Shown piece by piece: positions 32,220 through 62,431 of a stretch of 64,000 bases of DNA (position 1 is the stretch's first letter; every line of letters begins with the position of its first letter). The stretch is from a virus (taxonomy: Duplodnaviria; Caudoviricetes): positions 1-64,000 of the IMG/VR virus record IMGVR_UViG_3300025600_000004. One strand, 5' to 3'. The position numbers were made by a program, and so were the translations under genes. The notes under the pieces are model-generated. The model was not told the origin of the DNA. It saw only the letters and a program-made list of their open reading frames with translations, and ran no database searches.

Positions 32220-33598
32220 ATGTTTACAGAGGAATCAGAGAGGAAAACCGATGTATTCGGCAGGAAGTACATATGGATTATTACTACGACAACTACGTTC
32301 ATGTCTATGGAAATCAATGTGTATCATAGTGCCCATGATAGCTATTGGGATGCTGAGGTTTACGCAGAGGAAAGTCATTGGCTCAGAGATAGTCCATACA
32401 AGATCAAAAGAGACATAGTGAGATAAGGAGGAACAGTGATGTTCGAAGAATACAAAGCTGAATACCGAATCAACAAAGCATCCATCGATACCAAGGCTCT
32501 ATGGAATACTATGCTTGCAGTGACATTCATCACAGTACTGGTGTTGCTATGAAGAACGGAGGAACAACAATGAAACCACAGATAGGACAAAGGGTATTCT
32601 TGAAACCAGTGGGCGACGCAGCTCGCAGAGGCAACACTGTCATCAAGGAATACATCGTATCAAAGGTAGGCAGGAAATACTTTGAAGCATGGGACGGGTC
32701 ATGGAAATACTCTGCCATAAAGTTTCACATTGAAGGACTTAGGCAAGTCACAGATTACTCAGTAGACTATGAATTATACTTTGATATGCAGGAAATCATT
32801 GATGAACGAGAATGCGAGGTGCTCATTGATGATCTCAGGAAAGTCATCGGAAACTATGGGCCACCAAAGTTATCCTTAGATCAACTACGTCGTATCAATG
32901 CAATCATCAAGGAGGGGTTATGACAGTATTCATAGACAAACACAATGTAATATTCTACGTCAATTCACAGGATTCCCTGGATGCCCTGTTTTATGCTGAG
33001 GGAATGTATGTAGTGGCAATGGATGGCATTGGAGGTGTACGATGACTATAAAGATCAACTGTGTATACTGTGGCGAACCTATCAGATCATACCAAGAATG
33101 CGCTGGATATCCTAGTGCTCAATGCTTGGATTGTCTCATCAAAGCCAACATAGAATCCAAGAAGGACTATCTATGGAATCTAAGAGAATCATACAGATCC
33201 AAGAGTCTCAGTATTTCAATAGTTAACGCAGATGAATCAGTGGACAAAATCTACGATGTCTCTGGGATGTCACGTAGTAATATTCACTGGCTACTTAGTA
33301 GAATACCGATGTACTTAACCAATGGCAAATATGTAGAACTCAAGGAGGAATTACAATGATAAAACTCAGAAAGACTCAGTGCCCACACTGTCAACGTACC
33401 GTCCATGCAGTCCTAAGTCACGGTGAATGGCGAGGTGAGTGTTCAGTGTGCAGCGATGGGTTTACTATGCCTACTGTGTTGCCCGAAGTTTCCGAAGATG
33501 AACGTAGACGTGTCGATGAATTCTTTGATAACCTAAGTTTCGATGATCTCAAAGTCAAACTAGGAGAAGCAGGGTATGCGGAGGATGCCAAGGGATAA
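32220..33598 (+). other. early hypothetical genes (32220-32426, 32570-32923, 32920-33045, 33042-33359, 33356-33598)
   Basis: GGAGG RBSs and overlapping starts/stops; two ORFs carry CxxC pairs. Confidence 0.7.
33462..33493 (+). repeat. repeat A copy 2 (inside ORF)
   Basis: TTACTATGCCTACTGTGTTGCCCGAAGTTTCC. Confidence 0.9.
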
Positions 33599-33627
33599 CT
33601 ATGTCTACCTTGTTGCCCAAAGTTTCC
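33596..33627 (+). repeat. repeat A copy 3 (starts on stop codon; precedes dnaE)
   Basis: TAACTATGTCTACCTTGTTGCCCAAAGTTTCC. Confidence 0.95.
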
Positions 33628-33671
33628 TAGGGATATGGAGTGGCTTCCTAAGTAGCCGAAGGAGGGATTAG

Positions 33672-36600
33672 ATGGACAATTATGATACTTACGTACCACC
33701 ACATTTACATCTTGATTACAGTAACAATGGCATGAAGGATTCAGTGAATACCATAGATAACGTTGTGAAGAGACTCAAGGAAATCGGAGCTACTGCGTGT
33801 GCGGTGACAGACCATGGAACTACATCGGGCATCGTAGAAGCATACAAGAAGTTCAAGAAGGCAGGGATTAAGCTGATTCCAGGGTACGAAGGATATCTCA
33901 CTGGAGACCTGTCGATACAGCAAAGAGACCTAAGCCATATAACACTGTGGGCAAAGGATTCTCAGGGGCTTCGTAACCTCTATGAAATATCTACGATTGC
34001 CAATGGGGACAAAGGTCGTTCACCGAATAACTATTACTACAAACCGAGGGTGGACTTAGAATTACTGAGACGATTCTCTGCTGGCATCATGGCTGGATCT
34101 GCGTGCCTTGGTGGATGCTTGGTTACTGAGGATTACGGTGTGAACGAAGATAAACTTCAGCAACTTATTGACATCTACGGAGCTGATGATGTATTCCTTG
34201 AAATCCATACATACCAATGTCCTGAGCAATTCAAGTACAACCATGCACTCGTCAAAGCATCCAAGAAATTCAATGTGAGACTCATAGTTGCTACGGATGC
34301 CCACTTCGCGTGGAAGTACAGTGCTGAACTCAGAAAACACTTCAAGAATACATCGAAGACTCAGGAAGGCGATGAGAATATTGACGATACATTGTATATT
34401 CAAGATGTCGATGAAATACGCAGTAACCTGAGATACCTAGATGGACTCGTAATCAATGAAGCCATTGCCAATACCCATGTACTCGCAGAGAAATCCAATG
34501 TAGAAATAGCATTCAACGGTAAGCACTATCCAGAGTATAAGTGTGAAAATCCATTGACAGAGGTGAGACTCCAAGCAATCGCAGGGTGGAATAGGTTAGT
34601 CAAAGGCACTGGCGTAGATTACGATGCATACGCAGAGAGAGTCAAGTTTGAACTGAACATCCTCGATAAGCAAGACTACTGTAGTTACTTCTTGATCAAT
34701 AGTGGACTCATTAAGAAATTCATTGCAGCAGGGATTCCAGTGGGTGACGGTAGAGGATCAGTGGTGGCATCGATGGTGGCTTGGTTGCTAGGGATTACAA
34801 AATTAGATCCATATAAATACAATTTAGTCTTCGAAAGGTTTGCTCACATGGAAAGGCTTAGTCCACCCGACGTGGATACTGATATTTCTAAGAAACACAG
34901 ACATCAATGCTTAGAAATTATCAAAGAAGAATACGGTGAGACGTACCAGTGTAGAACCTTCGCCCGCTATGGTGCATCAGGGAGCATTAGGCAAGCAGGG
35001 AAGGCATTGTTCTATCCATTGGATGTCGTGGATGCCTTAGCAAAATCATTGTCTAAGTATGAATCCGATGATGAAGACGATGAAACTTCCACGTATGATC
35101 AGAAGATATGGATGTTAGACAATGTTAAAACCGATGACAACGCAGACCTCATAGAACTAGCAAAGCAATTCGTAGGCATCTGCTTTGGATATGGCAAACA
35201 CGCCTCAGCGATCATCGTACTGACAGAGGATGTTCTACAGTTTTGTTCCGTAGAGCGTCAGAAGGACAGTAAAACAGGGGATATCAATTACATCCTCGCA
35301 TGTGACTTTAAACTCCTTGAGGAAATGGGACTGATGAAACTTGATATGCTTGGACTTAAGACCCTCGATGTTATCCAAGATACATTAGATATGCTCAGTG
35401 TTCCCATTGACATTGAAACTATTCCATTGGATGACGAAGCTACTTCTCAGATGTTATGCGAAGGCAAAACCAAAGGCTGTTTCCAAATATCTTCACCTGG
35501 CATGACACAGTTAGTTAAAGGAATTCAGCCTAAGAACTTTGCTGACATGATACCTTTGGTTAGTCTGTACAGACCAGGGCCACTCGATGCCATCGTAGAA
35601 GAAACAGGGGACACAATGGTTGACACCTATGTAAAAGTCAAGAATGGCGAGATAGAAGCCACGTATCTCCATGAAAAACTGCGACCTATCCTTAGTGACA
35701 CCTACGGGATTATCTTATATCAAGAGCAAATCTTAGAAATAATCAAGGAACTATGTGGGTACTCATTGGGCGAGGCTGACATGTTTCGCAGAATTATTGG
35801 CAAGAAAAAAGTCGATGAAATGAAACCTGCGATTGAAGCGATGATTGAACGTGGAGTTATCCAAGGCATCCCTAGACCAACTATGGAATCCATCGCAGAT
35901 CGCATTGTAACCTTTGCTATGTATGGATTCAACAAGTGCTTATCAGGGGATGAGAGGCTTCATAGACCTGCCAATGGTAAATTTATGCCAACACTGAGTG
36001 AAATGTGGATGATCAAGAATAGCCTCGCATACGCCAAAGAAACCAAGCACAAAGAACTCTATGATAAATACAATGCGTATGGCTATGGGACAACGTTGTC
36101 TATGTTTGACGATGGCAATATCAAGAAAAATACTATAGTTGACATTGTACCCTCTGGAACCGCAGCCATCTATAGACTCACTACGAAGACAGGGAAGATC
36201 GTAGACTGCACAATGAATCATAAGCTCCCTACACCACAAGGTGGCAAGATACTCTATGATCTCAAAGTAGGCAGCGAAGTTTATGTCATTGGCGACTATG
36301 AAATTACATCGACCATCTATAATTTCTACAATGGTAACCCTCCAGAATCCAACGTACCCAAAGCAGGACAACAGGGCTTCCAGCGTAATCCATATGGAGC
36401 ATCGACACTCTTTGATACAGCAAGGGAATTCTTCAGTAACATCCACGCTGCCTGTGAAGACTGCGGAACCTATGATGCTAAGAAATACGAATTGCACCAT
36501 GTTAACATGAATCGCCAGGATAATTCCAATGAGAATCTAAGGTGGCTATGTGTATCGTGTCATCGGAAAGCTCATTATGCCATGGGCAGAACTAAGGTGG

Positions 36601-37628
36601 GAACAAGGGGCTCATCGGCTGCCATAGATACCATCGCAAGCATAGAATATCTAAAAACCACAGAAGTCTTTGATGTGACAATGGAGGCTCCAGCACATAA
36701 CTTCGTTAACCTAGGTGGCGTAGTAGTCTCAAATTCTCATAGTGCTGCCTATGGAAAGCTGGCGTACAAGACCTCGTATCTCAAGGCTCATTATCCTCTG
36801 CAATATATGTGTGCATGTATCAACAATGAAGAAGGTAAGCAAGACAAGATACTCCCGTTCATCAAGGAGTGCGGGAAGCTGGAGATTACAGTGTTGCCCC
36901 CTGACATCACATTGAAGAATCGCCAATGGATTATACAGGGAGATTCACTGGTGATGGGGCTTCACTATATCAAAGGTGTCGGCAATAATCTCAGGTTGGA
37001 CAATATAAATTCCTATGATGACATTGTACGCTATAATGCTAAGGATGTAACTACAGCACTTATCAAGTCTGGAGCAATGGATAGCTATGGTGATCGTGGA
37101 GTCCTACTGGATAGCTTAGAATCACTACAGGATACAATGAAACGCATCGACAACTGCATGGCGAAGGTCAAAGAGAACTCAGAATCCCTAGCACTCGCAG
37201 TATCTGACAAAGACATCAAGAAGTATGCTCGGCAGAAGGGACAATGGGAAGCCAAGTTGTCCGAAGCCAAAGCAAAGGAAGCTCAAGTATCATCCACTGA
37301 ATTCTATGATAAAGTCATAGGAGAAATCGAGGTCTTAGGTTACAGCGAAGGTGTATCTCCGACAATTAAAGTAGGTAAGGTAGTCGGTGTATTCTCTAAG
37401 GTGATAGGCAATGGTTCAACTATGGGTTGGGTCACGCTAAAGTCTCCTCATGGTGAGTTTCGATGTGCGTGTTTCTCAGATATGTGGGATATCATCAAAG
37501 ACTTAGTAGTCGTAGGGTCAACATACAAATTCGTCGTTAAATCCAATGATCGCGGTGACAACTTAGAAGAGATATCGATTAACGGAGTAACCCATAGAAA
37601 GCCTCAGAAGCAATGGGCGAAACGATGA
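33672..37628 (+). CDS. dnaE: DNA polymerase III alpha subunit (DnaE-type) containing an intein
   Basis: PHP (HLH.DYS, TDHG), catalytic PPDVDTD, K.D.LGLKTL, LYRPGP, YG..LYQEQ, FNK/SH.AAY; C-terminal OB fold. Confidence 0.95.
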   Translation: MDNYDTYVPPHLHLDYSNNGMKDSVNTIDNVVKRLKEIGATACAVTDHGTTSGIVEAYKKFKKAGIKLIPGYEGYLTGDLSIQQRDLSHITLWAKDSQGLRNLYEISTIANGDKGRSPNNYYYKPRVDLELLRRFSAGIMAGSACLGGCLVTEDYGVNEDKLQQLIDIYGADDVFLEIHTYQCPEQFKYNHALVKASKKFNVRLIVATDAHFAWKYSAELRKHFKNTSKTQEGDENIDDTLYIQDVDEIRSNLRYLDGLVINEAIANTHVLAEKSNVEIAFNGKHYPEYKCENPLTEVRLQAIAGWNRLVKGTGVDYDAYAERVKFELNILDKQDYCSYFLINSGLIKKFIAAGIPVGDGRGSVVASMVAWLLGITKLDPYKYNLVFERFAHMERLSPPDVDTDISKKHRHQCLEIIKEEYGETYQCRTFARYGASGSIRQAGKALFYPLDVVDALAKSLSKYESDDEDDETSTYDQKIWMLDNVKTDDNADLIELAKQFVGICFGYGKHASAIIVLTEDVLQFCSVERQKDSKTGDINYILACDFKLLEEMGLMKLDMLGLKTLDVIQDTLDMLSVPIDIETIPLDDEATSQMLCEGKTKGCFQISSPGMTQLVKGIQPKNFADMIPLVSLYRPGPLDAIVEETGDTMVDTYVKVKNGEIEATYLHEKLRPILSDTYGIILYQEQILEIIKELCGYSLGEADMFRRIIGKKKVDEMKPAIEAMIERGVIQGIPRPTMESIADRIVTFAMYGFNKCLSGDERLHRPANGKFMPTLSEMWMIKNSLAYAKETKHKELYDKYNAYGYGTTLSMFDDGNIKKNTIVDIVPSGTAAIYRLTTKTGKIVDCTMNHKLPTPQGGKILYDLKVGSEVYVIGDYEITSTIYNFYNGNPPESNVPKAGQQGFQRNPYGASTLFDTAREFFSNIHAACEDCGTYDAKKYELHHVNMNRQDNSNENLRWLCVSCHRKAHYAMGRTKVGTRGSSAAIDTIASIEYLKTTEVFDVTMEAPAHNFVNLGGVVVSNSHSAAYGKLAYKTSYLKAHYPLQYMCACINNEEGKQDKILPFIKECGKLEITVLPPDITLKNRQWIIQGDSLVMGLHYIKGVGNNLRLDNINSYDDIVRYNAKDVTTALIKSGAMDSYGDRGVLLDSLESLQDTMKRIDNCMAKVKENSESLALAVSDKDIKKYARQKGQWEAKLSEAKAKEAQVSSTEFYDKVIGEIEVLGYSEGVSPTIKVGKVVGVFSKVIGNGSTMGWVTLKSPHGEFRCACFSDMWDIIKDLVVVGSTYKFVVKSNDRGDNLEEISINGVTHRKPQKQWAKR
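35937..36734 (+). mobile_element. intein (266 aa) with HNH endonuclease domain
   Basis: Begins CLSGD after FNK; block B T.NH; block F VFDVTME..HNF; ends VVSN before Ser+1 (SHSAAY); internal CEDCG..LHH..N..NL..LC.SCH..H. Confidence 0.93.
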
Positions 37629-37629
37629 T

Positions 37630-37661
37630 TTCCTATGCCCACTATGTTTCCCAATGTTTCC
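37630..37661 (+). repeat. repeat A copy 4 (just after dnaE stop)
   Basis: TTCCTATGCCCACTATGTTTCCCAATGTTTCC. Confidence 0.9.
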
Positions 37662-37807
37662 TCATAGTCCATCCTAGCGTCCCAATCCAAGGTATCCTAT
37701 GCCAAACCTACGCACGACAAAGAAACCCACTGAGCGTCCTTCTAGGGTGCTTGGTGGGAAGCTACGCATAATCTTCGTAAACTCAGATTAAAACGGAGGG
37801 AATTACA

Positions 37808-38026: not shown

Positions 38027-38494
38027 TCATAGAGGTTTGTCCAGTGTACGATACAGTTCCGCAGTTGTCTTAGGACTCAATGTTTCAGTGTCTAACTTAG
38101 TTTGCATTGATCGTAGACCTGCGAAGTGTATTTCCTCGGCAGTCTTGGTTTTTGCTAGGTCTAACTCCATTTGAGCCAAGGCAGCTTTGATGTACTTAGT
38201 GCTGGCATGATTCTCCATGAGTTCTGCTTCGCGGTCGGTGTATCTCTTAGTGATAAACTTGTCTGACCCTAGCAACACCGCAGGATCAACTCCGAGTCTA
38301 AAGGCTATGGCTTCTATCTGCGAATGGCTAGGGAGTGACTTACGTGCTCCGTCTTCCATTTTGCATACAGCGGATCGTCCAATGTGTAATACGTCTGCAA
38401 TGGTTTGCTGGGAAAGTCCTTTGGATTCTCTAAGTCTTCTTACGTTTGCTCCGAATTCTTCTATGATGTTTGTTGTGATGCTCACGATATTCAC
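38027..38494 (-). CDS. XRE-family HTH regulator
   Basis: FG.NVRRLRESKGLSQQTIADVLHIGRSAVCKMEDG. Confidence 0.85.
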   Translation of the reverse strand: MNIVSITTNIIEEFGANVRRLRESKGLSQQTIADVLHIGRSAVCKMEDGARKSLPSHSQIEAIAFRLGVDPAVLLGSDKFITKRYTDREAELMENHASTKYIKAALAQMELDLAKTKTAEEIHFAGLRSMQTKLDTETLSPKTTAELYRTLDKPL

Positions 38495-38520: not shown

Positions 38521-38560
38521 ATTGTATCATACAAGGAAACACTGTGTCAACAAGTTTCTT
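38521..38560 (-). promoter_or_regulatory. sigmaA promoter of the XRE gene with GAAAC-N13-GTTTC palindrome
   Basis: Minus strand AAGAAACTTG-TTGACA-18-TACAAT. Confidence 0.65.
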
Positions 38561-39024: not shown

Positions 39025-40158
39025 TTATTCCTTAGAAAGTCCCAGTAATTTACCCATGATTGCTGCTGCTGTTTTGTCCTGCTCAGGTACGCTGTGAACA
39101 TAGAGTTGCAGGGTAATTCCCACAGAGGAATGCCCTAGTCTCTCACTGACCATCTTGATATTACATCCCTCGGCAATCAGTTGAGTAGCATGGGTATGTC
39201 TAAGATCATGAAAGCGAACTCCCTTGATTCCAGAGAGTGCCAGGACTTCGCGATAGAGAGCTGAGGCATTCGTAGTTAACAACGGCTTCCCAGTGGCATT
39301 GTGGAACACCAATGGATTCCCTAGGTTAATACTCTGCAACTCCTCCAGCACCTTAGCATCCACAGATATCGTACGTATCGAAGAATTAGACTTAGGAGAT
39401 TCCAATGATCCTTCCTTAGATAGACTGCGGATGACTTTGACATTATCGAGTCCTACGCAATCCCACTGTAGTCCCAGCAACTCCCCAAGTCTCATCCCAG
39501 TGGCGAGGGCAAGGAGAATAAGGTAATACGCAGCCCTCAGCATCTCCCTACGAGAACTTAGGCATCCACGAGCTGCCTCAAGCAACGTTGTTATCTGTGT
39601 CTGACTGAGTATATGCATTGTCTTCATTGGGCGCTTCAGCGGGTTACTACGACTTGCAGGGTTGATTCCAATGATTCCTTCGTCCACAGCGAGGTTCAAC
39701 ATATTATGTATAGCCTCTCTATGCTTCCCTAGACTAGTCGGTGAAAGTCCATAGGCAACCTTGACATTAAAGTAATCATTGATGATGCCAGTGGTTAGCT
39801 TTTGAACCTTGTATTTACCTAGTGTCGGCTCAATGTGCTTAGTGCAGACATGGACATAACAAAGGTACGTAGACTCCCTAAGTTGCGTCTTCTTGCTCTC
39901 TAGCCATCTTTGGATGTACTGAGTTACCGTGTAGCTATTGCCTGGTTTCAGTAATCCTTTGCCATTTTGCTTCTTGAGTTCATCCAGTGCCTTCACTGCA
40001 TTCTTCTGTCCTTCTACGGTAACTGACTTTCTCCTCTGTTCTCCACCGATGCCATCTATGGTGATTTGAACTTTGTATTTACCTTTGGATATTTCTAGAA
40101 TGCTGCCATCGCCCTTGGGTCTCCGAGGTTTAGGCTTAGGTTTTTCCTTATCTTCCAT
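39025..40158 (-). CDS. int: tyrosine integrase
   Basis: GDGSI N-terminus, TGMR.GELLGL.W, RFHDLRHTHAT, LGHSS...T..LY.H; ATG 40158 after GGAGGG. Confidence 0.95.
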   Translation of the reverse strand: MEDKEKPKPKPRRPKGDGSILEISKGKYKVQITIDGIGGEQRRKSVTVEGQKNAVKALDELKKQNGKGLLKPGNSYTVTQYIQRWLESKKTQLRESTYLCYVHVCTKHIEPTLGKYKVQKLTTGIINDYFNVKVAYGLSPTSLGKHREAIHNMLNLAVDEGIIGINPASRSNPLKRPMKTMHILSQTQITTLLEAARGCLSSRREMLRAAYYLILLALATGMRLGELLGLQWDCVGLDNVKVIRSLSKEGSLESPKSNSSIRTISVDAKVLEELQSINLGNPLVFHNATGKPLLTTNASALYREVLALSGIKGVRFHDLRHTHATQLIAEGCNIKMVSERLGHSSVGITLQLYVHSVPEQDKTAAAIMGKLLGLSKE

Positions 40159-40266: not shown

Positions 40267-40500
40267 ATGACACTGAAAACTATAGGCACTACGCAATACA
40301 TAACTTACATATTTGATACTGTGAAAAAATGGAGCTGGACAAAGGGGATGTACTTTGTTCACCCTTCGGCAGAACAGGAATTCATCGCATACATTAGACA
40401 CAATGAATCACTTCAACAGCTCCGCGAGCTCCGAGATATCCTTAGCTTCTTTATCAGTGGGCTTACCTTTGCCTCTAGTGAATATCTCCGTATCATCTAA
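40267..40500 (+). CDS. small protein, candidate SOS-induced antirepressor
   Basis: AAGGAG RBS; follows the SOS box; 3' end overlaps the convergent repressor gene. Confidence 0.45.
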   Translation: MTLKTIGTTQYITYIFDTVKKWSWTKGMYFVHPSAEQEFIAYIRHNESLQQLRELRDILSFFISGLTFASSEYLRII

Positions 40501-40725
40501 TAGAAACACATCGATCTCGTCGTCATCAAAGAAGAAGTATCCTTTGGGCAACTCTGCGATGGCGATGAGTTCCTTTGTTTTATCCCAGCCAAGCTTCTTA
40601 GATTCATCCTTGCAGTTTTCGATGTTGGCGATGTTACGCTCTGTAGTATCTAATGCTGCAGCGAGTTCTATCCTTGAATACCCTAGTTTATTCCTAGCGT
40701 ACCGAACTCTTTCCCCGTATATCAT
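40408..40725 (-). CDS. immunity repressor (XRE HTH, no S24 domain)
   Basis: GERVRYARNKLGYSRIELAAALDTTERNIANIEN; divergent from the early genes. Confidence 0.8.
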   Translation of the reverse strand: MIYGERVRYARNKLGYSRIELAAALDTTERNIANIENCKDESKKLGWDKTKELIAIAELPKGYFFFDDDEIDVFLLDDTEIFTRGKGKPTDKEAKDISELAELLK

Positions 40726-40889: not shown

Positions 40890-41216
40890 ATGCAAAGCGA
40901 GGAACGTACATTGAAAACATCATACAGCGAAGACCCACAGAGGATAAGCTTAGGACAACTCCAGGATTCCTACTATGAAGCACAGCATTCCGAAGAAAGC
41001 ATCTTAGGTTCCGCGAAAGCCCATCGTAACCGACACATAGCAAGGGCAAACTCAGCATTCGAAGTATTGCTGAGGAATCACCCAGAAGGCGAAGTGTTGC
41101 TGAGGATGCTGTGGGATGAACTAAGTGATGCAGAGGATATCATAGTAGATGCAACGGTTGAACATTGTTTCGTAGAATGTCAAAAGAAACTTATTGACAC
41201 AGTGGTTGCGAGGTGA
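40890..41216 (+). CDS. hypothetical protein
   Basis: First ORF after the rightward promoter; start uncertain. Confidence 0.5.
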   Translation: MQSEERTLKTSYSEDPQRISLGQLQDSYYEAQHSEESILGSAKAHRNRHIARANSAFEVLLRNHPEGEVLLRMLWDELSDAEDIIVDATVEHCFVECQKKLIDTVVAR

Positions 41217-41222
41217 TATAGT
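41186..41222 (+). promoter_or_regulatory. early sigmaA promoter
   Basis: AGAAACTTA-TTGACA (41194)-17-TATAGT. Confidence 0.75.
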
Positions 41223-41338: not shown

Positions 41339-41375
41339 GAAACATATTGACATAATGAATTGACTATGGTACACT
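41339..41375 (+). promoter_or_regulatory. early sigmaA promoter
   Basis: GAAACATA-TTGACA (41347)-17-TACACT. Confidence 0.7.
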
Positions 41376-41425: not shown

Positions 41426-41457
41426 TTGCTATGGCTAGGGTGTTTCCCGAAGTTTCC
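41426..41457 (+). repeat. repeat A copy 5
   Basis: TTGCTATGGCTAGGGTGTTTCCCGAAGTTTCC. Confidence 0.85.
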
Positions 41458-42129: not shown

Positions 42130-42168
42130 GCAATCAGAGTTTCCTAAGAATACTAAGGAGGAATTACT

Positions 42169-42783
42169 ATGACAACAATGACCAACCAAGAATTAGCCAC
42201 AGAGTTCCGCAGACTGGCTAAGGAAACCCTGGCATCCTTAGAAACCATAAAGAGTGGCAATAGACTCCTTAGCACAATGATAACAGCTAAGGCGCACGAT
42301 GAACACATGGAGCAACTGAAAGCTATGAATACAGTGATGTCTCAGCAACTCGAATCTATCAAAGCAATGGTCAATGGCACAACTATGCCCACCTTGTTTC
42401 CTAGAGTTTCCGAGATCACTCAGACTTACATCAAAGAACTCCAGGCATCCAATGACATCATGCAGACACAGTTAGAAACCATATCATCACCAGAACTACG
42501 CAAGATATGGAGCGATGCACATTCTAAGATGGCCGAAGAATACAAGTATAAACTTGCAGTACTTCTGAGTCAACCTATTTACGAAGTACACCTTGATGTC
42601 AATGCTCCAGAGTTTCCAAAGAATACGAAGGATACCATGGCATTCTATGAAGCCATGATGAAAATCCCTGAGCATCAACGGACATCCGAAGAAATCGGTG
42701 AATCACTAAGGAGAATACTTAGTAGCATCAACGAAACGGAGGAATTACAATGTATTTCACAGCCAAACACCAAGAACTCATAG
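42169..42783 (+). CDS. hypothetical coiled-coil protein
   Basis: 204 aa; contains repeat A copy 6 in frame. Confidence 0.6.
   Translation: MTTMTNQELATEFRRLAKETLASLETIKSGNRLLSTMITAKAHDEHMEQLKAMNTVMSQQLESIKAMVNGTTMPTLFPRVSEITQTYIKELQASNDIMQTQLETISSPELRKIWSDAHSKMAEEYKYKLAVLLSQPIYEVHLDVNAPEFPKNTKDTMAFYEAMMKIPEHQRTSEEIGESLRRILSSINETEELQCISQPNTKNS
42380..42411 (+). repeat. repeat A copy 6 (inside ORF)
   Basis: CAACTATGCCCACCTTGTTTCCTAGAGTTTCC. Confidence 0.9.
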
Positions 42784-43169
42784 ACCAACTACAGGAACTA
42801 TGTCCCATCGCATTTCCTAAGAAGCCCAGTCCTAAGGTCGCACTGGCACACGGGCAACACATCGACATCCAACGAATCCTAAGCATCGACAAGGCAACTT
42901 CGATAGCACTGTTGAACTTCTGGTGCAAGGGACATCGGTATGACCTCGCATGTTCCATAGAAGGTGTCCTTCGGCTGAGGTACGATGGCAGCGTAGGAGG
43001 CAAGGTGAGTCTAAGGGAATCGCAGATACATAAGAGGAAGCTGGATGGGTACTATGAGACGAGGGTGGCTCCGAAGGGTTACAAGGTTACACCAAGGGAG
43101 CCGAAGTCATTCTTTGCTACAGCTAAGGAAATGCTAAGGTCACTATGGCGCAAGGAGGTAGCTCAGTAA
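42750..43169 (+). CDS. ProQ/FinO-domain RNA-binding protein
   Basis: L.EL.P.AFP.K..PK.AL..G...DI...LL.FWC.G.RY......EG.LR...DG...GKVS aligns by eye with the FinO/ProQ consensus. Confidence 0.75.
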   Translation: MYFTAKHQELIDQLQELCPIAFPKKPSPKVALAHGQHIDIQRILSIDKATSIALLNFWCKGHRYDLACSIEGVLRLRYDGSVGGKVSLRESQIHKRKLDGYYETRVAPKGYKVTPREPKSFFATAKEMLRSLWRKEVAQ

Positions 43170-43314: not shown

Positions 43315-43983
43315 ATGAATAACTTAGTCACAATGACAAACGGCACAGCCACAGTAACATCTCGGCAGGTCGCGGAGAACTTTGGGAAGGAACATAGTAA
43401 GGTCAAGGCATCCATAGAAAATATCATGGAAGAATTAGGTAGCGCGGAAATCGGCGACACCTCAATGTTCACAGTGGGATGCTATGTAGATCAGTGGAAT
43501 CGCAATCAGGCAGAGTTTACAATGAATCGCGATGGCTGGACTTTGCTGACTATGGGATTTACTGGTTCCAAAGCCCTTCAATGGAAGCTCAAGTACATCG
43601 CAGCATTCAATGATATGGAGAAGCAACTTAGTACCCATGCAATTCCACAGACTCGCGCAGAGGCTCTGAGACTTGCTGCGGATGCGATGGAACAACTTGA
43701 TTCAGCCAAGACTCTCATAGAAATCATGGAGCCCAAAGCTAAAGCCTTCGACATATTCATTGACTGCCAAGGTTACTACTCAGTTGGCACAGCAGCCAAG
43801 ATGTTGAACACTGGTCGCAATAGACTCTTCGCATTCATGGCAATTCATAAAATCATCATGGATAGCAATGTTCCCTATCAATGCTATGTAGACAGAGGGT
43901 ACTTTGCGGTCAAAGGTCATAATGGAATCACCTATGTATCTCCCAAGGGTCTCCAATGGTTGTCGGAGAAACTCTTAGCTTAA
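43315..43983 (+). CDS. Rha-family regulator fused to antirepressor KilAC (ANT) domain
   Basis: TSRQVAENFGKEH, M.RDGW.LL.MGFTG.KALQWK..YI.AF; C-terminal AAK.L..GRNRLF...PYQ..RGYF. Confidence 0.88.
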   Translation: MNNLVTMTNGTATVTSRQVAENFGKEHSKVKASIENIMEELGSAEIGDTSMFTVGCYVDQWNRNQAEFTMNRDGWTLLTMGFTGSKALQWKLKYIAAFNDMEKQLSTHAIPQTRAEALRLAADAMEQLDSAKTLIEIMEPKAKAFDIFIDCQGYYSVGTAAKMLNTGRNRLFAFMAIHKIIMDSNVPYQCYVDRGYFAVKGHNGITYVSPKGLQWLSEKLLA

Positions 43984-44012
43984 CTATGCCCACACTGTTT
44001 CCCAAAGTTTCC
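43981..44012 (+). repeat. repeat A copy 7 (starts on stop codon)
   Basis: TAACTATGCCCACACTGTTTCCCAAAGTTTCC. Confidence 0.95.
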
Positions 44013-44026: not shown

Positions 44027-44697
44027 ATGGACAGCTTCAGATTCAAACTCAGTAATCCTGAGTCCCTAGGACATGACTTCGAATACCTAGCAACCAAAGT
44101 CACTCCAGGGAGGTACAAGGTATCATGGACTGACAAAGGAGTGCTACAGGCAGAGGACTTCGGACTCTTTGAGGTCAGAGACTCTATCAAGGATGGTACT
44201 TGGGTGATCGTAGAATAGTCGAAGTATAAGGAGGTAACAATGGAATTACTTAGTCAATACAATGCTATCATATGTCAAGTCTTAGTAATCATATGCATAC
44301 TGAAGTCATCATGGCATTACTGGAAAGGCGATGTAACCAAGGCAAACTTTGAGATGCTATGGGCAATCTTGTTAAACATGGGAATATAAGGAGGAATAAC
44401 ATGGAAATCAACATTAGAACAATGTCAACAATGGAGTCGCTAAAATCCAAGGAACTCAGAGTCGCAGGGTACATAGACAAATTCCTAGCTTTTGCAAAGT
44501 ACATCGAAGGTAAGGCATTGGCATTCCAGAGAAATTCCACAGAACAACTACGGGATGACCTCGCCAAACAACGATCCATCCGAGCAGACTACTTGATCAC
44601 CTTGGCACTAGAGGCTCAAAGGGTTAACGATGAAATCGATGAGATTACTGAGGCTCATGGCAGACATAGTGAGAATCTGGAGATGTACAAGGGTTAA
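44027..44697 (+). other. small hypothetical genes (44027-44218, ~44240-44390, 44401-44697)
   Basis: GGAGG RBSs. Confidence 0.6.
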
Positions 44698-48025: not shown

Positions 48026-51000
48026 ATGTATCAACCAATGATGCCAATGTCACCCTTCAAAGTACAGCCAACGCATGACGGTGAAAACTACAGTGCATCC
48101 ATTGAATATACAGTTCTCTATGGCTACATCTGTGAGACTATGGATGTCTTCGTAATCCGAGGGAACAATGGTCGTCCAGAGAATCTTCAGAGCCACGAAG
48201 TTACGGTGGTGTTGCTATGAAAATACAGATAACCGATAGAGTCCTATGGTTGGACAAAGTGAACCTTGAACTCCAGGAAATCTATGACACCAGAGCCACA
48301 GAGAATGCAGAGATGGAGGCGTTACCCTGGTATCGCAGTATATTCATCGGAACCTTTGACTACCCAAGCATGTACAGGTTTAATGCTAAGTATGACCTAG
48401 AACGATTTAAGACAGCATTGGAATCCGAGGGCACTGGGAATATCTATGTAGGCGCAGATGTGCTGAGGTATTTGCTATGACAACTAGGAGACCCCGAACC
48501 CAATGCACCCATAAGAAACAATGTATATCCAAGCTGTGTGGTGACTGCAAAGAAGGCTTAGGCAGCAGTGATCACTTCACTGAGAAGCCCAAGAAACAGC
48601 CATTGACACCTTTGATATTCCATGCTCTCCCACAGGCACAAAGGCTCCAACAACTAGCATTGATATACATGGCACGATGTACTACCGATGGTTTTACGAA
48701 GGCTGGTCTGTTCAAACTCAGTAGATACTTTGCCACCATTGATCCTCAGCATGTGCAGTGTTTCTTTGACTACATCTATGGGATGTCAGAGAATGCCGAA
48801 GTTAATCTCTATGACATCTATGATAAGTCGAGGGCGTGGCAGTTGAATCTTAGGTTGACTGCGAATAAGCCGACTGCCGAGGTTGCACAGTATCCAAGCC
48901 TCTTAGATTGTCTCAATGGATTATAAGGAGGAATAACAATGATAATCAAAGCCCGCATCACGTTCATCAATGGTAAGACAATGGAAATACAAGATGAAGC
49001 CAAGAACTTCCGAAGCTTTGCCAGGACACTATGTAGGACGCAATGGAGGATCTTTGGAGACAAAGCATTCAACGCTGAGACTATATGTACTATTGAGGAG
49101 GTCACAGAATGACAATGTAAACCAAAGTACCCATCGTAGTAACAAGGAGGTCACAGTTATGATAAGTAAACTACTATGTAAATTCCTAGACCACAACTTC
49201 GAGTCCATCGGATTCTACAACTCATACTATTGTAGTCGATGTAAGTCATGGGTGAAGCTATGATCCGATGGCAAACACAGAAAGTCACTGCCATTCAAGG
49301 CAAGTACAGTATCACCATTGAACGCCAAAGTTGGGACGGTAGATACGTAGGAGCCATAGATATCTGGGATGATCACAAAGGATATCAACGATTCGGTGGA
49401 TTCAGCAGTATAACTATCGAGTCAGCACAGGCTGTAGCAAAGGAACTTGTGAGACTCATGGAGGTCACCGATGAAACATAGATGTTCAAAACTGCCACGC
49501 AATGTAAACGTAGAACACGACGCATCCTGGGGATGGCTATGGACTACAAAGGATACGATGGCTGCAGTGAATTATTGCCCGATCTGCGGAGTTGAACTAA
49601 GGAAAATCAAGGAGGTAAATCAATGAAACTCATAGCAATCAAAACTAAGGATTCGGTGTATATCTCAGATAACATTGACAACTCAGGCTACTACAGTTCA
49701 GCCCTCGGAAATCTATTGTTCGACGGTGTAAAACCTGAGACAACCTATAATAGAACATGGTTCAAGCTCCCTGGCATTCCTAAGACCATCCAAAAGTTAA
49801 ACAAGGGTGGCAGAGTAAACCGCAGATTCACATTGAAGGATGGGTTTCCTGAGACTGCGAAGACTCCTCAGTTAATCACATGGCAACAGTGGAATGCAGA
49901 GGATGATGATGGTGACTATACGCTATTCACTGATGTCCGAGGGTTGTACGAAGAGCAGTACGAGATGTCTGAGGATGAACTGGTTGACGTAGAATTCTCA
50001 CTGAACATCATTGAAGAACTCGAAGAATTTACTATGACCGCAACGAAATATGTGATGACCTACAATTTCATAGATATGCTCAATACAAATCCTGTGTTAT
50101 TGCCATTGAAGCCATGTAGTCTCGATGCTCAACAAAGTTATAACATTATCAGAGCCTATGTTAAAACTCACATTGACCCAAGGTGGGCAAAGATTACCAG
50201 TGATTATGACTTCTGCTTTACTGTGAAGAAAGTCATAGCACTCACTGAGGCCGAGGAATATGCAGTGGATATCAATAATTTAGGATTTGGTAAAAAGAGG
50301 AAGCCCAAGTATGAAACTAGGTATCGTAAAACCAGGGAAACCGAGGTATACGAAGTTGCTCCTAAGTCATATCAAAGCTATTCCATAGTTCAACCCTTCG
50401 CTGGCAAGGATTACGAAGCATTGCAAAGTAACATCCAAGCATTCCTAGAAGACCTTATGAAAACCATCAATGCTCCTTTGATTGACTGCCCACATTGCAA
50501 TGGATCAGGGATTGTACAATGCTAACCATGGGACACAACCTACGGCACTCCCTAGACTTACTACGAGCTCTCATGGCAGTTCATAGAGAACATGATACCT
50601 ATGAGAACAGAGAAGTGCTGAGGCTGGCACGAGAAGAATTCGAGGAATTGAACGATGTGTTTCTTAGGATTACTGGGGAACGGAGTCCATGGAGAACGGA
50701 GGATAAACGATGATCACAATGTTAAGACCGCTGCAAATCGTAGTTAACAATGAATCCTGCGGAACATACGTGACTCCATGCAAGAAATACAATGTAGTAG
50801 CTATGGACTACAATGAGGACAACGATCTGCGCTTTGTTATCATTGATGATACCTGTGAATTGCTATGGGTAAGCAGAGGAAATTTCAGAGTATACGAGGA
50901 GGTAAGCTATGATAATCAATGACACCTATGAAATCCTAGTAGACGAACGGAACTTTGTACTCAAGAAGTACATCGAACCCGTGGAGAAGTTCAAGAAGGT

Positions 51001-53013: not shown

Positions 53014-53104
53014 CACAGCGCGATACAGAGGTTTTACCTAGGTAGGACTATGGATTGCTTTGGTGGAGTGGTGGAGTATGTGTCAGCGGAGTGCTAGGGT
53101 GGTA

Positions 53105-53136
53105 TTTCTATGCCTAGATTGTTTCCTAGAGTTTCC
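53105..53136 (+). repeat. repeat A copy 11
   Basis: TTTCTATGCCTAGATTGTTTCCTAGAGTTTCC. Confidence 0.88.
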
Positions 53137-53170: not shown

Positions 53171-53827
53171 ATGGCAAAAGGTGATTCGTGCGAAGTCTGC
53201 GGAAAATCAGAAGGTAAAGTGTTTGATAGCAAAGTATTTGGAATGAAATTGTGTCAGAAACACTATAGCCAAAAACAGACACATGGCAAAACACTAAGCA
53301 GAACCTCGGCTGATCCAAACGAAATCGTAATTTACAAAGACTATGCTGAGGTTATAATGTACAACAAAAAATGTGAAGAATCAGCAAGAGCCAAGATCGA
53401 CCTGGAAGATATAGATAAAGTAAAGAAATATAAATGGAATCTTGGAAGCGATAAGTACGCAGTATCAAAAACAGATGACCAAAGAAGAGTGGCGATGCAT
53501 CGGTATCTTATGGATTGCCCAGACGACATGGTTACAGACCATAAATTTGGTGATCGTCTCGATAATCGCAAAGAACATCTGAGAAACTGCACGTTCAATG
53601 AAAATCTATTAAATCAAAAGAGAGGGTCAAGGAATACATCAGGTTGCAAAGGTGTTAGCTGGGAACAAAATAAGAGGCACAAGAATGGAGTTTGGTTAGC
53701 GAGGATAACTGTGAAGGGTAAGTATTATTTCCTTGGGTACTTTAAAAACTTCGATGACGCTGTAAGAGCAAGAAAAGCTGCTGAGACAAAATATCAGGGC
53801 GAGTTCGCATATAAGGAGGTGATTTAG
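53171..53827 (+). CDS. HNH-AP2 homing endonuclease
   Basis: MHRYLM..P..MVTDH..GDRLDNRK..LR, N.SG.KGV, AP2-like W.ARI.......LG.F..FDDAV.AR..AE. Confidence 0.88.
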   Translation: MAKGDSCEVCGKSEGKVFDSKVFGMKLCQKHYSQKQTHGKTLSRTSADPNEIVIYKDYAEVIMYNKKCEESARAKIDLEDIDKVKKYKWNLGSDKYAVSKTDDQRRVAMHRYLMDCPDDMVTDHKFGDRLDNRKEHLRNCTFNENLLNQKRGSRNTSGCKGVSWEQNKRHKNGVWLARITVKGKYYFLGYFKNFDDAVRARKAAETKYQGEFAYKEVI

Positions 53828-55870: not shown

Positions 55871-55978
55871 GAAACACATTGACACAACGCCCAACCTATG
55901 ATATCATTAGTACATACCCCAGTCACCAAAGAAACATTGAAGAAACTTGTTGACAAGCAATGGATAACGTGGTAAACT
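55871..55978 (+). promoter_or_regulatory. tandem early sigmaA promoters
   Basis: GAAACACA-TTGACA (55879)-17-TATCAT; GAAACTTG-TTGACA (55950)-17-TAAACT. Confidence 0.75.
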
Positions 55979-56001: not shown

Positions 56002-57712
56002 ATGACAACAGAGAAAATCAAAGAAGCCATAATACTCCTAGCGTCTAAGTTTGACCAAAGGACTCAGACAGACATTGAACAAATCCTATGTGACCATGGA
56101 TGCGTAGATCAACAAGAAAGGTGCGAGGAATTCTGTGTATGTCGTAGTTGCCTAAAGAGCATCGAAGTTTCGGAGTATCGCCAAAGATTATCTATGAATA
56201 TACCAGGAATCCTGTATTTAGCCGATGGAACCAAGGAATACCGATGCAGACCAGTGTAAAGGCAGGTGAACAACAATGACGGTCAAAGAATTAATCAGAG
56301 AATTACAAAGTATGCCACAGGATGCCAAGGTAGTTACTGAGACTAACATAACATACCGAGTCAGCTTAGACTCCGAAGAAAACTTAGTGCTCATAGCGTA
56401 AGGAGGTAACCCAATGAATAGTGAGTGTTCCACACGAACTGTGCAACATCCAAAGCATATCCAAGCAGCCCTAGAAGAACTAAGCGAATACATGGAAATA
56501 AACTATGATAATATTACTGTATTTGATGCAGTCAGGGACAGTCGTATGCTCGAAGCTGCCCAAGCCGAACTCGCAGAATTACTCAGTATTCATAGTTTAG
56601 TCAAGGGATTCATCGAGGACAATGGAATCAAGTGTCGTGGCAATATCAATAGATGCGAAGTTGACGAAGTACTCAGTGCATTCAAGGATATCTGCGACAT
56701 CGTTGGGTACAAGGTTTAACTATGCCCACTTTGTTTCTCGAAGTTTCCAAGAAGAATACGAAGGAGCGATGAAGATGCTAATAGAGGTAACTGAGAATGA
56801 ATTAAAGACAATAAAGAATGCATTGTGTAATAACATTAATTCGCTTAAAGAGACCAATCATAATCTACGGGAAGATTTTGAATATGAGGCGTACAAATAC
56901 ATCGTTGTCGATGAATATAGGAGAAAAATACTAGGCAACAAAGATAAGATAGCAACAATACAAAAGTTACTAGATAACCTAAAGCCAGTCGAGATATCTA
57001 AGCCTAAACGTGGTGGCGATAGCTGTGATTACTATAATCCATCAAGGCATGACTTGGAGGAGATTTTGCACGATGGCAGTGATCGTTGGGCATCCAATGA
57101 TTTCCAAAGAGCTTGGTCAGGGTATCCTACGGGTCGAAGATTTTAACAAAGGAGCGATGAATACAATGGACATCACAGGAACCAAAGTTGAAGTAACGTG
57201 TACTATGAATGTCAGCGACGAGCATTGGGACAACATTTGGAAGACTAAGGAGCCCAGTGTTGCCGAAGAATCTAAGGAGGTAAACAATGAACATCAATGA
57301 TACATACTTAGTAGTAGACACTGAATCCAAGGAAGTCTTCGGACACTATGACACTCCAGGAAAAGCGAAGGGTCAGGTGAAACGCAAGGGTGCGAGGTAC
57401 GCTGTGTACGTGGTGACTGCGGTGGAGCCATTGGTGAAACCTAAGAAGGTCATTGAAGACCTCACGGGAGTGTCGTACCTTGACAACTTAGAAGAGTGCA
57501 AGGAATACATGAGAGAAGGCATGGTTGAAACTGCGAAGGACGAGGCTGGCTTTGCTTGCTGCGGAGACAGTGAAGTCACTGATATCTTCAAGTATCAAGG
57601 GAAATTCTATGAGATTACTGTGGAGATCGAATGGGATCGCAGAGATAAGCAGTTTTACTTTGTATATTCCAGTGAAGTTCGTAGCTGCAAGGAGGTCGAT
57701 GAACCTGAGTGA
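56002..57712 (+). other. small hypothetical genes (56002-56259, 56414-56719, 56769-57146, 57287-57712 and others)
   Basis: RBSs and overlaps; no motif recognised. Confidence 0.6.
56717..56748 (+). repeat. repeat A copy 12 (starts on stop codon)
   Basis: TAACTATGCCCACTTTGTTTCTCGAAGTTTCC. Confidence 0.95.
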
Positions 57713-58523
57713 TACTTTGCAAATCCTAATAGACGCAGACATCCAATGTTTTCTCGCAGCTTGCATAGGCGAAACCAAGACCGACTGGGGGCCGTACACA
57801 GATGAGCAAGGCATTCTCCATGAAACCAACATAGTAATAGCCTATGATCTTCCGAAGGCACTGTCAGTCTTCGAAGCCAAGGTGTCCAATGTTATCCAAG
57901 CAGTCAGAGAATACATGGGAGTAGACATGGAATACAAAGTAACTATGTGCTTGACTCATAGGAATAACTTCAGAAAGACATTGATGCCAAGTTACAAAGC
58001 AAACCGCACAGCCCCGAAGCCGAAGTTGCTCCCAGATATCAGGGCTCACTGTGAAGCGAAATATGACTGCGAGTGCTGGGAGAACTTGGAGGCCGATGAT
58101 ACATTGTCTATTTTAGGCACTACTTTGGACAACAGTGTAGTGTGCAGTATAGACAAAGATATGCTGACTATCCGCGACACCATCGTTTACAACTGGAACA
58201 AAGATAACTTTGTACACACTGACCCACAGTCTGCACAGTATCACCACTATTACCAGACACTCAAAGGCGACTCCTGTGACGGCTTCGGGGGAGCAAAGGG
58301 CATCGGTGATAAACGAGCCAGAGCCATCTTAGAAACCGATGATTCATGGGAAGCTGTGGAGTCCACGTTTATATCCAAAGGACAGACCAAAGAAGATGCA
58401 TTGTTGATGGCAAGGATGGCAAAGTTGCTAACACCAGACCTTTATGATAGAGCCATGGGTACAGTGACATACTGGAATCCACCTGGCACTCCTATGCCCA
58501 CCATGTTGCCCGAAGTTTCCTGA
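57699..58523 (+). CDS. 5'-3' exonuclease / RNase H, T7 gp6-like
   Basis: LIDAD, NFRK.L.P.YKANR, LEADD, CSIDKD, GD.CDG..G.KGIG.K. Confidence 0.88.
   Translation: MNLSDTLQILIDADIQCFLAACIGETKTDWGPYTDEQGILHETNIVIAYDLPKALSVFEAKVSNVIQAVREYMGVDMEYKVTMCLTHRNNFRKTLMPSYKANRTAPKPKLLPDIRAHCEAKYDCECWENLEADDTLSILGTTLDNSVVCSIDKDMLTIRDTIVYNWNKDNFVHTDPQSAQYHHYYQTLKGDSCDGFGGAKGIGDKRARAILETDDSWEAVESTFISKGQTKEDALLMARMAKLLTPDLYDRAMGTVTYWNPPGTPMPTMLPEVS
58489..58520 (+). repeat. repeat A copy 13 (last codons of exonuclease)
   Basis: CTCCTATGCCCACCATGTTGCCCGAAGTTTCC. Confidence 0.92.
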
Positions 58524-60014: not shown

Positions 60015-60046
60015 TTACTATGTCTACGGTGTTTCCCAAAGTTTCC
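60015..60046 (+). repeat. repeat A copy 14
   Basis: TTACTATGTCTACGGTGTTTCCCAAAGTTTCC. Confidence 0.95.
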
Positions 60047-61695: not shown

Positions 61696-61697
61696 CA

Positions 61698-62402
61698 ATG
61701 AAAATCAAAGTAACCAAAGGTAGAAACAGTTGCTGGTACAATGACTTCATAGGTGAAATCTTCGAGGTAACCAATGATCGCAGAGGTTATTATACAGTTA
61801 AGCACAATGGCACCGATGATATCTGCGTTGTTAATCATGAGGACTGCGAAGTCATCCCAGAGTTTACCATCGGCTCCAAGGTAATCGTCAGAGACAACTC
61901 AGAGGACGATGGTCGCACTGGAGTTATCATTGGCACAGACGATGTATATCCATGGAGAATCAGGTATGACAGCAATGGAGAGAATGAGCTATTCTTTGAA
62001 GGATGCTTGGAGTTAGTCCCAGAGGAACAATGGCTCACGAAGGAAGCTGCGTTATGCCTCGCAATCAAGGGAGCCAAGGTAATCAATAAAGGAACAAGGA
62101 AAGACACAACGTATGTCTATTGGAATGGCAGAGGATTCGTCGTAAATATCAAAGATGATACAGAATATCCATTGGAATCACCTAGAGCCGATGATACTCA
62201 TTGGAAGATCTGGATTCCACCGACACCTCCGAAGCCTAAGTTCTCCATCGACTCCTTCGTAATCTTCGAAGAATGCTATGTTCGCATCATTGATTCAGAG
62301 TTCAAGCATGGAAATCATAGATACTATGTGTCCAAGGGAACCTTTGCAAATGCTAAGTCAGACTGCATGGTTGCCGATGAAACTGAGTTAACAGAGGTGT
62401 AA
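61698..62402 (+). CDS. multi-module SH3/KOW-like protein 3
   Basis: FTIGSKV.V..GRTG.I..W.IRY..LELV and KFS.DS.V..ETEL. Confidence 0.55.
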   Translation: MKIKVTKGRNSCWYNDFIGEIFEVTNDRRGYYTVKHNGTDDICVVNHEDCEVIPEFTIGSKVIVRDNSEDDGRTGVIIGTDDVYPWRIRYDSNGENELFFEGCLELVPEEQWLTKEAALCLAIKGAKVINKGTRKDTTYVYWNGRGFVVNIKDDTEYPLESPRADDTHWKIWIPPTPPKPKFSIDSFVIFEECYVRIIDSEFKHGNHRYYVSKGTFANAKSDCMVADETELTEV

Positions 62403-62431
62403 CTATGCCCTCTATGTCTCCAAAAGTTTCC
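62400..62431 (+). repeat. repeat A copy 15 (starts on stop codon)
   Basis: TAACTATGCCCTCTATGTCTCCAAAAGTTTCC. Confidence 0.9.

Follow-up and report, generated by a model that had tools for sequence, protein, structure and literature searches.

The window analysed here is a stretch of 64,000 nucleotides, bases 1–64,000 of IMG/VR record IMGVR_UViG_3300025600_000004, which represents an uncultured temperate phage (Caudoviricetes) from a peat metagenome. The record is a circular assembly of 79,563 bp; the record's 99-bp 'terminal repeat' appears to be where that assembly overlaps itself, and the corresponding contig in a peat DNA run has 79,494 bp. Our subject is a 32-bp element that recurs at gene junctions in the early part of this genome. 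A preliminary description of the window listed 15 copies and proposed that they act in the manner of stoperators, which in Cluster A mycobacteriophages are asymmetric, transcription-oriented repressor sites that stop elongation orientation-dependently (PMC9283540). Pfam and PHROG scans of about 100 open reading frames (ORFs) identified DnaE, primase-helicase, ligase, 5'-3' exonuclease, gp2.5-like SSB and NrdG-type genes, as well as Gad1, ArdA, integrase, several XRE, Ant/Rha, Bro-N and FinO-domain proteins. No recognisable RNA polymerase, sigma, NusG-, N-, Q-like, MotA/AsiA-like or ArpU/RinA-type gene was found in the same scans. The block of large ORFs at 7.7–32 kb is called structural after the preliminary description and was not annotated here. 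Copies of the element in the window, some scored with a position weight matrix (PWM), are as follows.

3055–3086, + strand: most divergent copy (CATCCATG...AATGTTTCC), PWM score 38.1; start codon 3196 is 109 nt on.
33462–33493, + strand: copy within ORF 33356–33598, in the ATG frame, found by consensus and PWM.
33596–33627, + strand: copy whose TAA is the stop of ORF 33356–33598; the dnaE start is 44 nt on.
37630–37661, + strand: copy 1 nt past the dnaE stop codon.
41426–41457, + strand: copy in a 5' untranslated region, 50 nt 3' of the −10 box of promoter 41347–41375 and 23 nt from start 41481.
42380–42411, + strand: copy within the 204-aa ORFan ORF 42169–42783, in the ATG frame, with no ribosome-binding site after it.
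43981–44012, + strand: copy whose TAA is the stop of the Ant/Rha-like gene; 14 nt to start 44027.
44695–44726, + strand: copy whose TAA is the stop of ORF 44401–44697; 64 nt to the gp2.5-like SSB gene.
45439–45470, + strand: copy 30 nt past the SSB gene; 59 nt to start 45530.
46472–46503, + strand: CTACG variant whose TAA is the stop of ORF 46094–46474; 24 nt to TTG start 46528.
53105–53136, + strand: copy found by PWM; 34 nt to the HNH endonuclease gene 53171–53827.
56717–56748, + strand: copy whose TAA is the stop of ORF 56414–56719; 26 nt to start 56775.
58489–58520, + strand: copy that supplies the final 11 codons of 5'-3' exonuclease ORF 57699–58523, past the conserved domain.
60015–60046, + strand: copy 4 nt past the dNMP kinase gene; 31 nt to start 60078.
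62400–62431, + strand: copy whose TAA is the stop of ORF 61698–62402; 23 nt to start 62455.

The elements form a real and strong network of regulatory motifs, whose proposed function is read from sequence. With up to three mismatches, the preliminary consensus matches the window 12 times, where 100 shuffles give an expectation of 0. It misses the copies at 3055, 41426 and 53105, which are recovered with the PWM and are clearly the same element once aligned, so that all 15 listed copies are present. Across the whole genome the PWM finds 21 gapless copies with scores of 36.6–49.4, and the next best match scores 17.3. Six copies lie outside the window, at 68388, 77381, 77865 and 79151 (+) and at 73219 and 74146 (−). 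The statement that all copies are on the + strand is correct for the window and incorrect for the genome, where the rule is co-orientation with the local gene: the two minus-strand copies lie between minus-strand genes of the cluster 70960–76513, which contains the ArdA gene and is the only long minus-strand early cluster. Copy orientation equals local gene direction in 21 of 21 cases (probability about 5e-7 under random orientation). A full-genome PWM scan had been set beforehand as a test of the proposal; the strands are unequal (19 copies against 2), and the 24-kb structural block contains 0 copies, as had been described for the window (chance about 5e-4).

The element measures 32 bp, or about 35 bp when a G at position −3, conserved in 20 of 21 copies, is counted. 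Thirteen positions are invariant among the 21 copies (C4, A6, G8, T16–T18, C21 and G27–C32) and positions 14–15 are random; the earlier observation that GTTTCC never varies and that there are no indels extends to the whole genome. Conserved bases are grouped in three blocks about 11 bp apart: A (CTATGCC), B (TGTTKCC, positions 16–22) and C (AGTTTCC, positions 26–32). This spacing places them on a single helical face. Blocks B and C are direct repeats with 10-bp spacing, and block A is only loosely similar to them. Tandem pairs of the form GTT(T/G)C-N4-7-GTTTC occur 22 times compared to 1.4 expected, and 20 of the 22 lie within elements. The least conserved part is the TAA at positions 1–3, which is the stop codon of the upstream ORF in seven genome copies, including six in the window (33596, 43981, 44695, 46472, 56717 and 62400) as reported before; TAA looks conserved mainly where it serves as a stop codon. 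Constraint acts on nucleotides and not on a peptide, because this phage uses GTT and TCC as minor codons only (20% of Val and 19% of Ser codons, respectively) and yet both are fixed in 21 of 21 copies. The information profile has strong power at 11–12 nt and none at 3 nt (p 0.30), and a peptide-coding constraint was dropped for want of 3-nt periodicity. The element is also free of a hairpin, as first described: alone it folds at 0 to −5.7 kcal/mol, its mean z in context is −0.05, and an Rfam scan of the window returned no match to it and only one tRNA. That single tRNA-Thr (anticodon TGT) occupies 7403–7478, directly upstream of the terminase region.

Incomplete copies also occur. A degenerate 22nd copy at genome position 74763 (−) retains only blocks B and C with a 1-nt insertion, and three partial copies retain the 3' block.

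42136–42144, + strand: 3' block AGAGTTTCC with the shared leader and a Shine-Dalgarno (SD) sequence, preceding gene 42169.
42609–42617, + strand: 3' block with a decayed leader, SD and ATG, inside ORF 42169–42783.
44736–44744, + strand: extra 3' block AAAGTTTCC, 10 nt past the end of copy 44695.

Several other identities for the element were tried and rejected. It is not a tyrosine-recombinase core site or attC (no dyad symmetry, no hairpin), it is too short for a rut site, and none of the host transcription-factor sites compared (DnaA box, 7/9; WalR; PhoP; Spo0A; LexA) is convincing. A search for a trans antisense partner yielded only a weak inverted copy at 45822–45853 (−), with a PWM score of 17.3. 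This inverted copy lies in a 222-nt gap without a called gene and may be a decayed copy or an antisense partner.

Transcription of the early region can be placed relative to the elements because the phage has a separate family of 13 sigma-A-type promoters (TTGACA-17-TAnnnT, mostly with a TRTG extended −10). Their shared pattern is AAAGAAACATA-TTGACAC...TRTG-n-TAnAAT-AAGTACATA, with the AAAGAAACATA box upstream and AAGTACATA downstream. Conservation in this family covers about 50 bp (AAAGAAACATA-TTGACACAGTG...cTATG-n-TAnAAT-AAGTACATA), far beyond the needs of a promoter, and the excess suggests either a regulator site or recent copying. Promoters and related half-sites are as follows.

32156–32184, 41194–41222, 41347–41375, 55879–55907 and 55950–55978, + strand, and 38521–38550, − strand: promoters in the window.
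69894, 70419, 71772, 75303, 75751, 76648 and 77306 (genome positions): promoters beyond the window.
41347–41375, + strand: sigma-A-type promoter TTGACA-17-TACACT with TG, a member of the 13-copy family, upstream of element 41426.
32161–32172, + strand: block-B-like half-site ACAATGTTTCCT in the spacer of sigma-A promoter 32156–32184.
38534–38545, − strand: block-B-like half-site ACAGTGTTTCCT in the spacer of sigma-A promoter 38550–38521, upstream of the XRE gene 38027–38494.

Each early unit delimited by sigma-A promoters contains 2–7 elements. The elements at 41426 and 77381 lie 50 and 46 nt 3' of the −10 boxes of promoters 41347 and 77306, respectively; sitting downstream of promoters, they are inside 5' untranslated regions, are transcribed, and are not needed as promoters there. 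No PWM match of at least 8 occurs at any of the 13 sigma-A promoters, where the only resemblance is a block-B-like 12-mer, ACARTGTTTCCT, in the spacers of promoters 32156 and 38550(−). The 12-mer also occurs 39 nt upstream of the −35 box of promoter 75779(−). Promoter 38550(−) drives an XRE gene, and the 12-mer in promoter spacers may be a weak hint of an operator counterpart to the element. A GAAAC box common to elements and promoters was considered and rejected, as the single box upstream of the −35 resembles a proximal UP element rich in A; tandem GTTTC pairs are confined to elements with one exception, at promoter 55950.

With respect to translation, an AAGGAGG sequence and a start codon follow 17 copies; the start lies 14–146 nt from the element, and exactly 23 nt away in six cases. 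Between element and SD there are 1 to about 135 nt, with 9–13 nt in eight copies. Two full-score copies (33462 and 42380) lie deep in ORFs with no start codon after them; these copies and the variable SD distance indicate that element function is independent of a nearby start codon. An upstream stop codon lies within 10 nt in 11 copies. As previously described, dnaE (33672–37628) is bracketed by copies 33596 and 37630, and the gp2.5-like SSB gene (44791–45408) by copies 44695 and 45439. The only clues to the host are signals of Firmicutes type, namely the AAGGAGG SD sequences and the TRTG-extended −10 promoters. The 204-aa ORF 42169–42783 is an ORFan whose frame runs across one full element and one decayed unit of 3' block, leader, SD and ATG; it resembles an in-frame fusion of three small gene units. 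A second repeat family (GCACCAGCG-TCCTTCTAGG-...GGT) is present at 2365–2394, 3124–3153, 37726–37770, 45902–45931 and 53083–53104. These repeats are often less than 100 nt from an element, and some can form a short hairpin.

The exact element pattern gave only single, chance-level matches in IMG/VR, GTDB genomes and JGI metagenomes, with no locus holding more than one copy. INPHARED contains no nucleotide match, and the best DnaE there has about 30% identity. No close relative was found in IMG/VR, where the best matches have 46% identity for a phrog_2467 protein and 39% for the exonuclease, with none for the primase-helicase. The sequence is present in a single run, a DNA metagenome from peat, and no RNA run containing the phage is listed; strain variants were sought in that peat run, which returned the source contig only. 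Exonuclease homologues with 52–81% identity are present in a large protein collection, and their homology to the phage protein stops at ...LWxP. In four of them (52–73% identity) the tails read Y/S-L-C-P... or A-M-P... before unrelated sequence follows; these tails are CTATGCC translated in two frames, just as the exonuclease ORF of this phage runs into its own element. The tails of P0003 and P0006 end in T-K-E-V, consistent with read-through of an AAGGAGGT SD. The protein tails hint that relatives keep the 5' block at the exonuclease junction and differ in their 3' blocks. Protein 61698–62402 has three homologues, two of which share its final residue and the third of which is two residues longer (KQ); they are uninformative about the junction. 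More distant relatives (40–46% identity in one protein) have their own co-oriented junction repeats beside SD sequences, for example cATAGGTAATTT-N14-GTTAATA-N4-TAATAT, or AAATATAATGAAAT before TATAAT. Lineage-specific junction signals seem common in the broad group.

The anatomy of the element, its orientation, its position in transcription units and its nucleotide-level constraint are observed directly. We propose tentatively, with a probability of about 0.35, that the element is a stoperator-like polar protein-binding DNA site in the early operons that acts on elongating polymerase; what we infer is that recognition is of DNA and not RNA, that the site acts as a roadblock, that its 5' part has a role in pausing, and which kind of protein binds it. 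A polar block best accounts for the orientation, the nucleotide conservation on one face, the tandem repeats, the position inside operons, the indifference to start codons and the early-only distribution. A sequence-specific phage protein, or tandem protomers of it, would bind the duplex at blocks B and C and would stop or hold polymerase coming from the 5' side after initiation at an upstream sigma-A promoter. Candidate regulators are the XRE proteins 38027–38494 and 40408–40725, a double-HTH protein (genome 70960–71715), the Ant/Rha protein 43315–43983, the 194-aa recombinase-fold protein (genome 76712–77296) and the ProQ-like protein 42750–43169. The 5' block, with its G at −3 and, after N8, the YG of CTATG, would be a pause signal, located where the active site sits when the front of the polymerase meets the protein. 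A pause signal placed before the protein site, as proposed here, would account for the orientation being so strict. The generic elemental pause pattern is G(−10)/Y(−1)/G(+1), which the G-N8-YG of the 5' part matches. As a result, every early unit would be silenced, in a lysogen or late in infection, with the copy-free late block spared. If the 3' blocks do differ among relatives, this is what would be expected of a lineage-specific protein reading the 3' part.

Several observations weigh against a polar block. In contrast to L5-type systems, full copies are absent from promoters and the late arm is free of copies, and a three-block site of 32–35 bp is far larger than a stoperator. The pause match amounts to only about 5 bits, and the 11–12-nt periodicity is overstated by the permutation test, since low-frequency power arises from any blocky profile. 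The 5' end, GGkwTAACTATG, resembles the translation-start context of the phage itself (GGAATAACAATG); seven copies have a stop-N2-start junction that a DNA operator does not need, and eight keep the narrow gap to the SD. Elements in relatives are deduced from protein tails and not from DNA.

Comparison with Cluster A stoperators (L5, Bxb1, TipsytheTRex) reveals shared features: more than 20 asymmetric, co-oriented copies at short intergenic sites in operons, with recognition, predicted in the case of the element, in successive major grooves on one face (PMC9283540). Stoperators are, however, 13 bp long and are bound by one monomer of a two-domain repressor (PMC9283540), whereas the present site has 32–35 bp and three blocks about 11 bp apart. 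They also serve as operators in promoters and occur in both genome arms (PMC9283540), whereas here no full copy lies at a promoter and there are 0 in 7.7–32 kb. The host here, moreover, is Firmicutes-like, and no homologous repressor was identified in this phage. The element is therefore not a member of the mycobacteriophage stoperator family, given its size and distribution and the apparent lack of promoter overlap by full copies, though that family would be closest to it in mode of action. The proposed stoperator-like network is partly supported: asymmetric, co-oriented sites at operon-internal junctions, on one face and downstream of promoters, fit it, and site size and the structural arm do not, while at promoters only the block-B-like 12-mer recalls an operator. 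Among Firmicutes, the multi-copy repressor site that comes closest as a precedent is SPBRE/MrpR of the Bacillus prophage SPbeta, which resembles the present case as a multi-copy intergenic repeat of a temperate Firmicutes phage, repressor recognition being a property of SPBRE (PMC10516654). SPBRE has 15 bp and lies in about 10 promoter regions (PMC10516654), whereas the copies described here are downstream of promoters or far from them. In a parallel with MrpR, a small tyrosine-recombinase-fold protein is encoded here beside a promoter and an element, and its catalytic residues seem, by eye, to be kept.

The gene for that protein (genome 76712–77296) encodes 194 aa consisting of a tyrosine-recombinase catalytic domain alone, in which R, HxxR, H and Y are apparently present by eye. 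It has its own sigma-A promoter, lies just upstream of a promoter and element, and is distinct from the full integrase at 39025–40158 (−). Judged from sequence, it may serve as a regulator similar to MrpR or as a dimer resolvase. Among other early genes, 49623–50525 encodes a full-length homologue of Gad1 (Gabija anti-defence 1; Pfam E 3.7e-103), which together with ArdA (genome 73255–73767, −) makes up an anti-defence gene set in the early region.

A more specific form of the polar block is more speculative still. The constant 5' half (G-N8-YG in ...TAACTATGCC), common to related phages, would pause host polymerase, and the lineage-specific 3' half, made of two GTTTCC repeats at 10-bp spacing, would bind a phage repressor; the two would silence the early operons at 21 points, and the variable half would set immunity specificity. 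Such a signal would represent stoperator-type logic of independent origin in a Firmicutes-like phage, and the need for a fixed orientation would be explained by its design.

Two quite different explanations, each doubtful, compete with the polar block. In one, the element is a factor-dependent, middle-class phage promoter at which an activator or sigma-like protein, not recognised so far, redirects host polymerase to a second wave of early-gene transcription. About 20 co-oriented junction copies are the classic distribution of phage-specific promoters, and the 17 copies with an SD and a start within 14–146 nt (mode 23 nt, six copies) conform to it. Some copies overlap the upstream stop codon, as do some T7 promoters. 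Elements stand in tandem behind an early promoter in two places (41347/41426 and 77306/77381), an arrangement seen with early-plus-middle promoters; the element opens with 8 nt (TAACTATG) identical to the '−16' region, TRTG, of perfect promoter 75779(−), and the junction repeats of distant relatives (groups L012 and L014) look promoter-like. The element recalls T4-type PeSL cassettes, T7 class II/III promoters and T4 MotA middle promoters in having about 20 co-oriented junction copies, each with a leader and ribosome-binding site, that mark small gene units. In contrast to PeSL, where each repeat has a sigma-70 promoter and a stem-loop, the promoter family here is separate and there is no hairpin. 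In contrast to T7 and MotA promoters there is no recognisable promoter core, whether sigma-70-type or other, and no phage polymerase, sigma or appropriator gene appeared in the Pfam/PHROG scans; nor did these contain a recognisable transcription factor of the promoter-redirecting kind. An A/T-rich, meltable −10 is missing at any fixed position; yACnnT (positions 11–16) is one bp too far from the TG. No common hexamer exists downstream of the element, where the SD would coincide with any −10 or start site; copy 43981 is only 14 nt before its ATG, and two copies are inside ORFs without a gene to drive. The promoter explanation, which was absent from the alternatives first considered, is weakened by these points. 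Three standard promoter types were rejected: a sigma-54 promoter (its −24 box would need a GG, which is lacking, and its −12 box a GC, in place of which TC is often found), a sigma-A promoter with element blocks as −35 or −10 (no fit), and lambda CII-type TTGC-N6-TTGC activation (the implied −10 would land on the SD).

The second explanation, about as doubtful as the first, is that the element works as RNA: as a pseudo-start or mini-ORF that relays ribosomes, as a cleavage site, or as a site for an RNA-binding protein (ProQ/FinO or a RegA-like repressor). Strict sense orientation is in keeping with this, and the two promoter-proximal copies at least are transcribed. The 5' end matches the SD-spacer-ATG context of the phage (GGAATAACAATG) at 9 of 12 positions, TAA-N2-ATG in seven copies is a normal coupled stop/start junction, AAGG or GAGG occurs 6–8 nt before the ATG in about half of the copies, and all four ORF-internal copies are read in the ATG frame (1/27 by chance). 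A mini-ORF, M-P/S-T-L/V/M-F/L-P-K/E-V-S, is present in 18 copies; it ends right after the element in six and within nine codons in seven more. It is nonetheless missing from 3 of the 21 otherwise perfect copies (ACG twice, ATG-TAA once), the wobble positions of GTT-TCC never vary, 3-nt periodicity is lacking, and SD-likeness upstream of the element ATG is weak except for the G at −3. As an RNA the motif is pyrimidine-rich, G-poor and unstructured, and many minimum-energy folds show its 3' UUUCC paired with the GGAGG farther downstream, although that pairing is trivial and weak. Spacing gives a divided answer: eight copies lie 9–13 nt before the SD, but overall the distance to the real SD varies over 1–135 nt and two copies have no downstream start. 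Potential binders exist in a FinO/ProQ-domain protein (42750–43169; 31.1 bits against a Pfam cutoff of 27) and in a separate ORF that matches the Phage_ProQ_C_like domain (E 8.9e-15). FinO-domain proteins are known for binding structured 3' ends, whereas the element is unstructured. The non-structural-only, start-proximal pattern parallels the SAS/ESAS of Cluster K, which are also confined to the non-structural half, have one orientation, lie upstream of starts and sometimes include the upstream stop within the motif (PMC3203893). SAS, however, has 13 bp, contains the SD and ends 3–7 bp before the start, and ESAS adds inverted repeats (PMC3203893). The element, unlike these, lies 14–146 nt before the start with a separate AAGGAGG between and has no inverted repeat.

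It is unlikely that the element is in essence a cassette boundary or recombination linker, comparable to PeSL, in which repeats persist because genes are shuffled with the help of the gp2.5-like annealing protein and the 5'-3' exonuclease and any regulation is secondary. Such a linker would fit the abutment on stop codons in seven copies, the distance of at most 10 nt from the upstream stop in 11, and the presence of recombination genes. The 204-aa ORFan ORF, which looks like three units fused through a full and a partial element, points the same way, and partial copies together with subsets that share flanks beyond the core (repeat families D3, D8 and D12) suggest copying between sites. However, 32 imperfect bp are short for homologous exchange, and 13 invariant positions beside the random positions 14–15 are the mark of a recognised motif, as homology-driven copying would homogenise or decay all positions alike. 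Invariant positions next to free ones make the linker idea insufficient on its own.

Less probable again is an antisense promoter. The reverse complement, GGAAAC-N16-GRCATAG, is reminiscent of extracytoplasmic function (ECF)-type promoters, which have the form TGAAAC-N16-CGTA, and would fire into the 3' end of the upstream gene to shut down early expression. The geometry is right, with the best hexamer, GGAAAC, 16 nt from the second-best block, CATAG, and a location at gene 3' ends suits antisense control. The −10 part nevertheless lacks the ECF CGT core, no sigma gene was found in the scanned ORFs, and the fixed relation to the downstream ribosome-binding site and the third conserved block are left unexplained; the comparison itself depends on generic consensus sequences. 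Antitermination of the nut/put, ops-RfaH or qut type, an alternative raised in the preliminary description, is not borne out, with no N, Q or NusG-paralogue domain in the scanned ORFs, no hairpin and no Rfam match.

Oriented, multi-copy junction motifs are a route by which several phage groups achieve genome-wide control with one protein. To our knowledge, only the stoperators of mycobacteriophages are mechanistically understood among such motifs. This phage offers a clean second case, with 21 indel-free copies, 13 separate host-type promoters, and regulated early units set against an element-free late block. There is also a hint that relatives keep one half of the site and vary the other. If the polar roadblock is true, elongation-level silencing would be general among temperate phages and not an oddity of actinobacteriophages, and the element would be a compact, orientation-dependent transcription stop module. 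If the element is instead a promoter or an RNA site, it would represent a new recognition class for the host polymerase or ribosome in an unexplored phage lineage.

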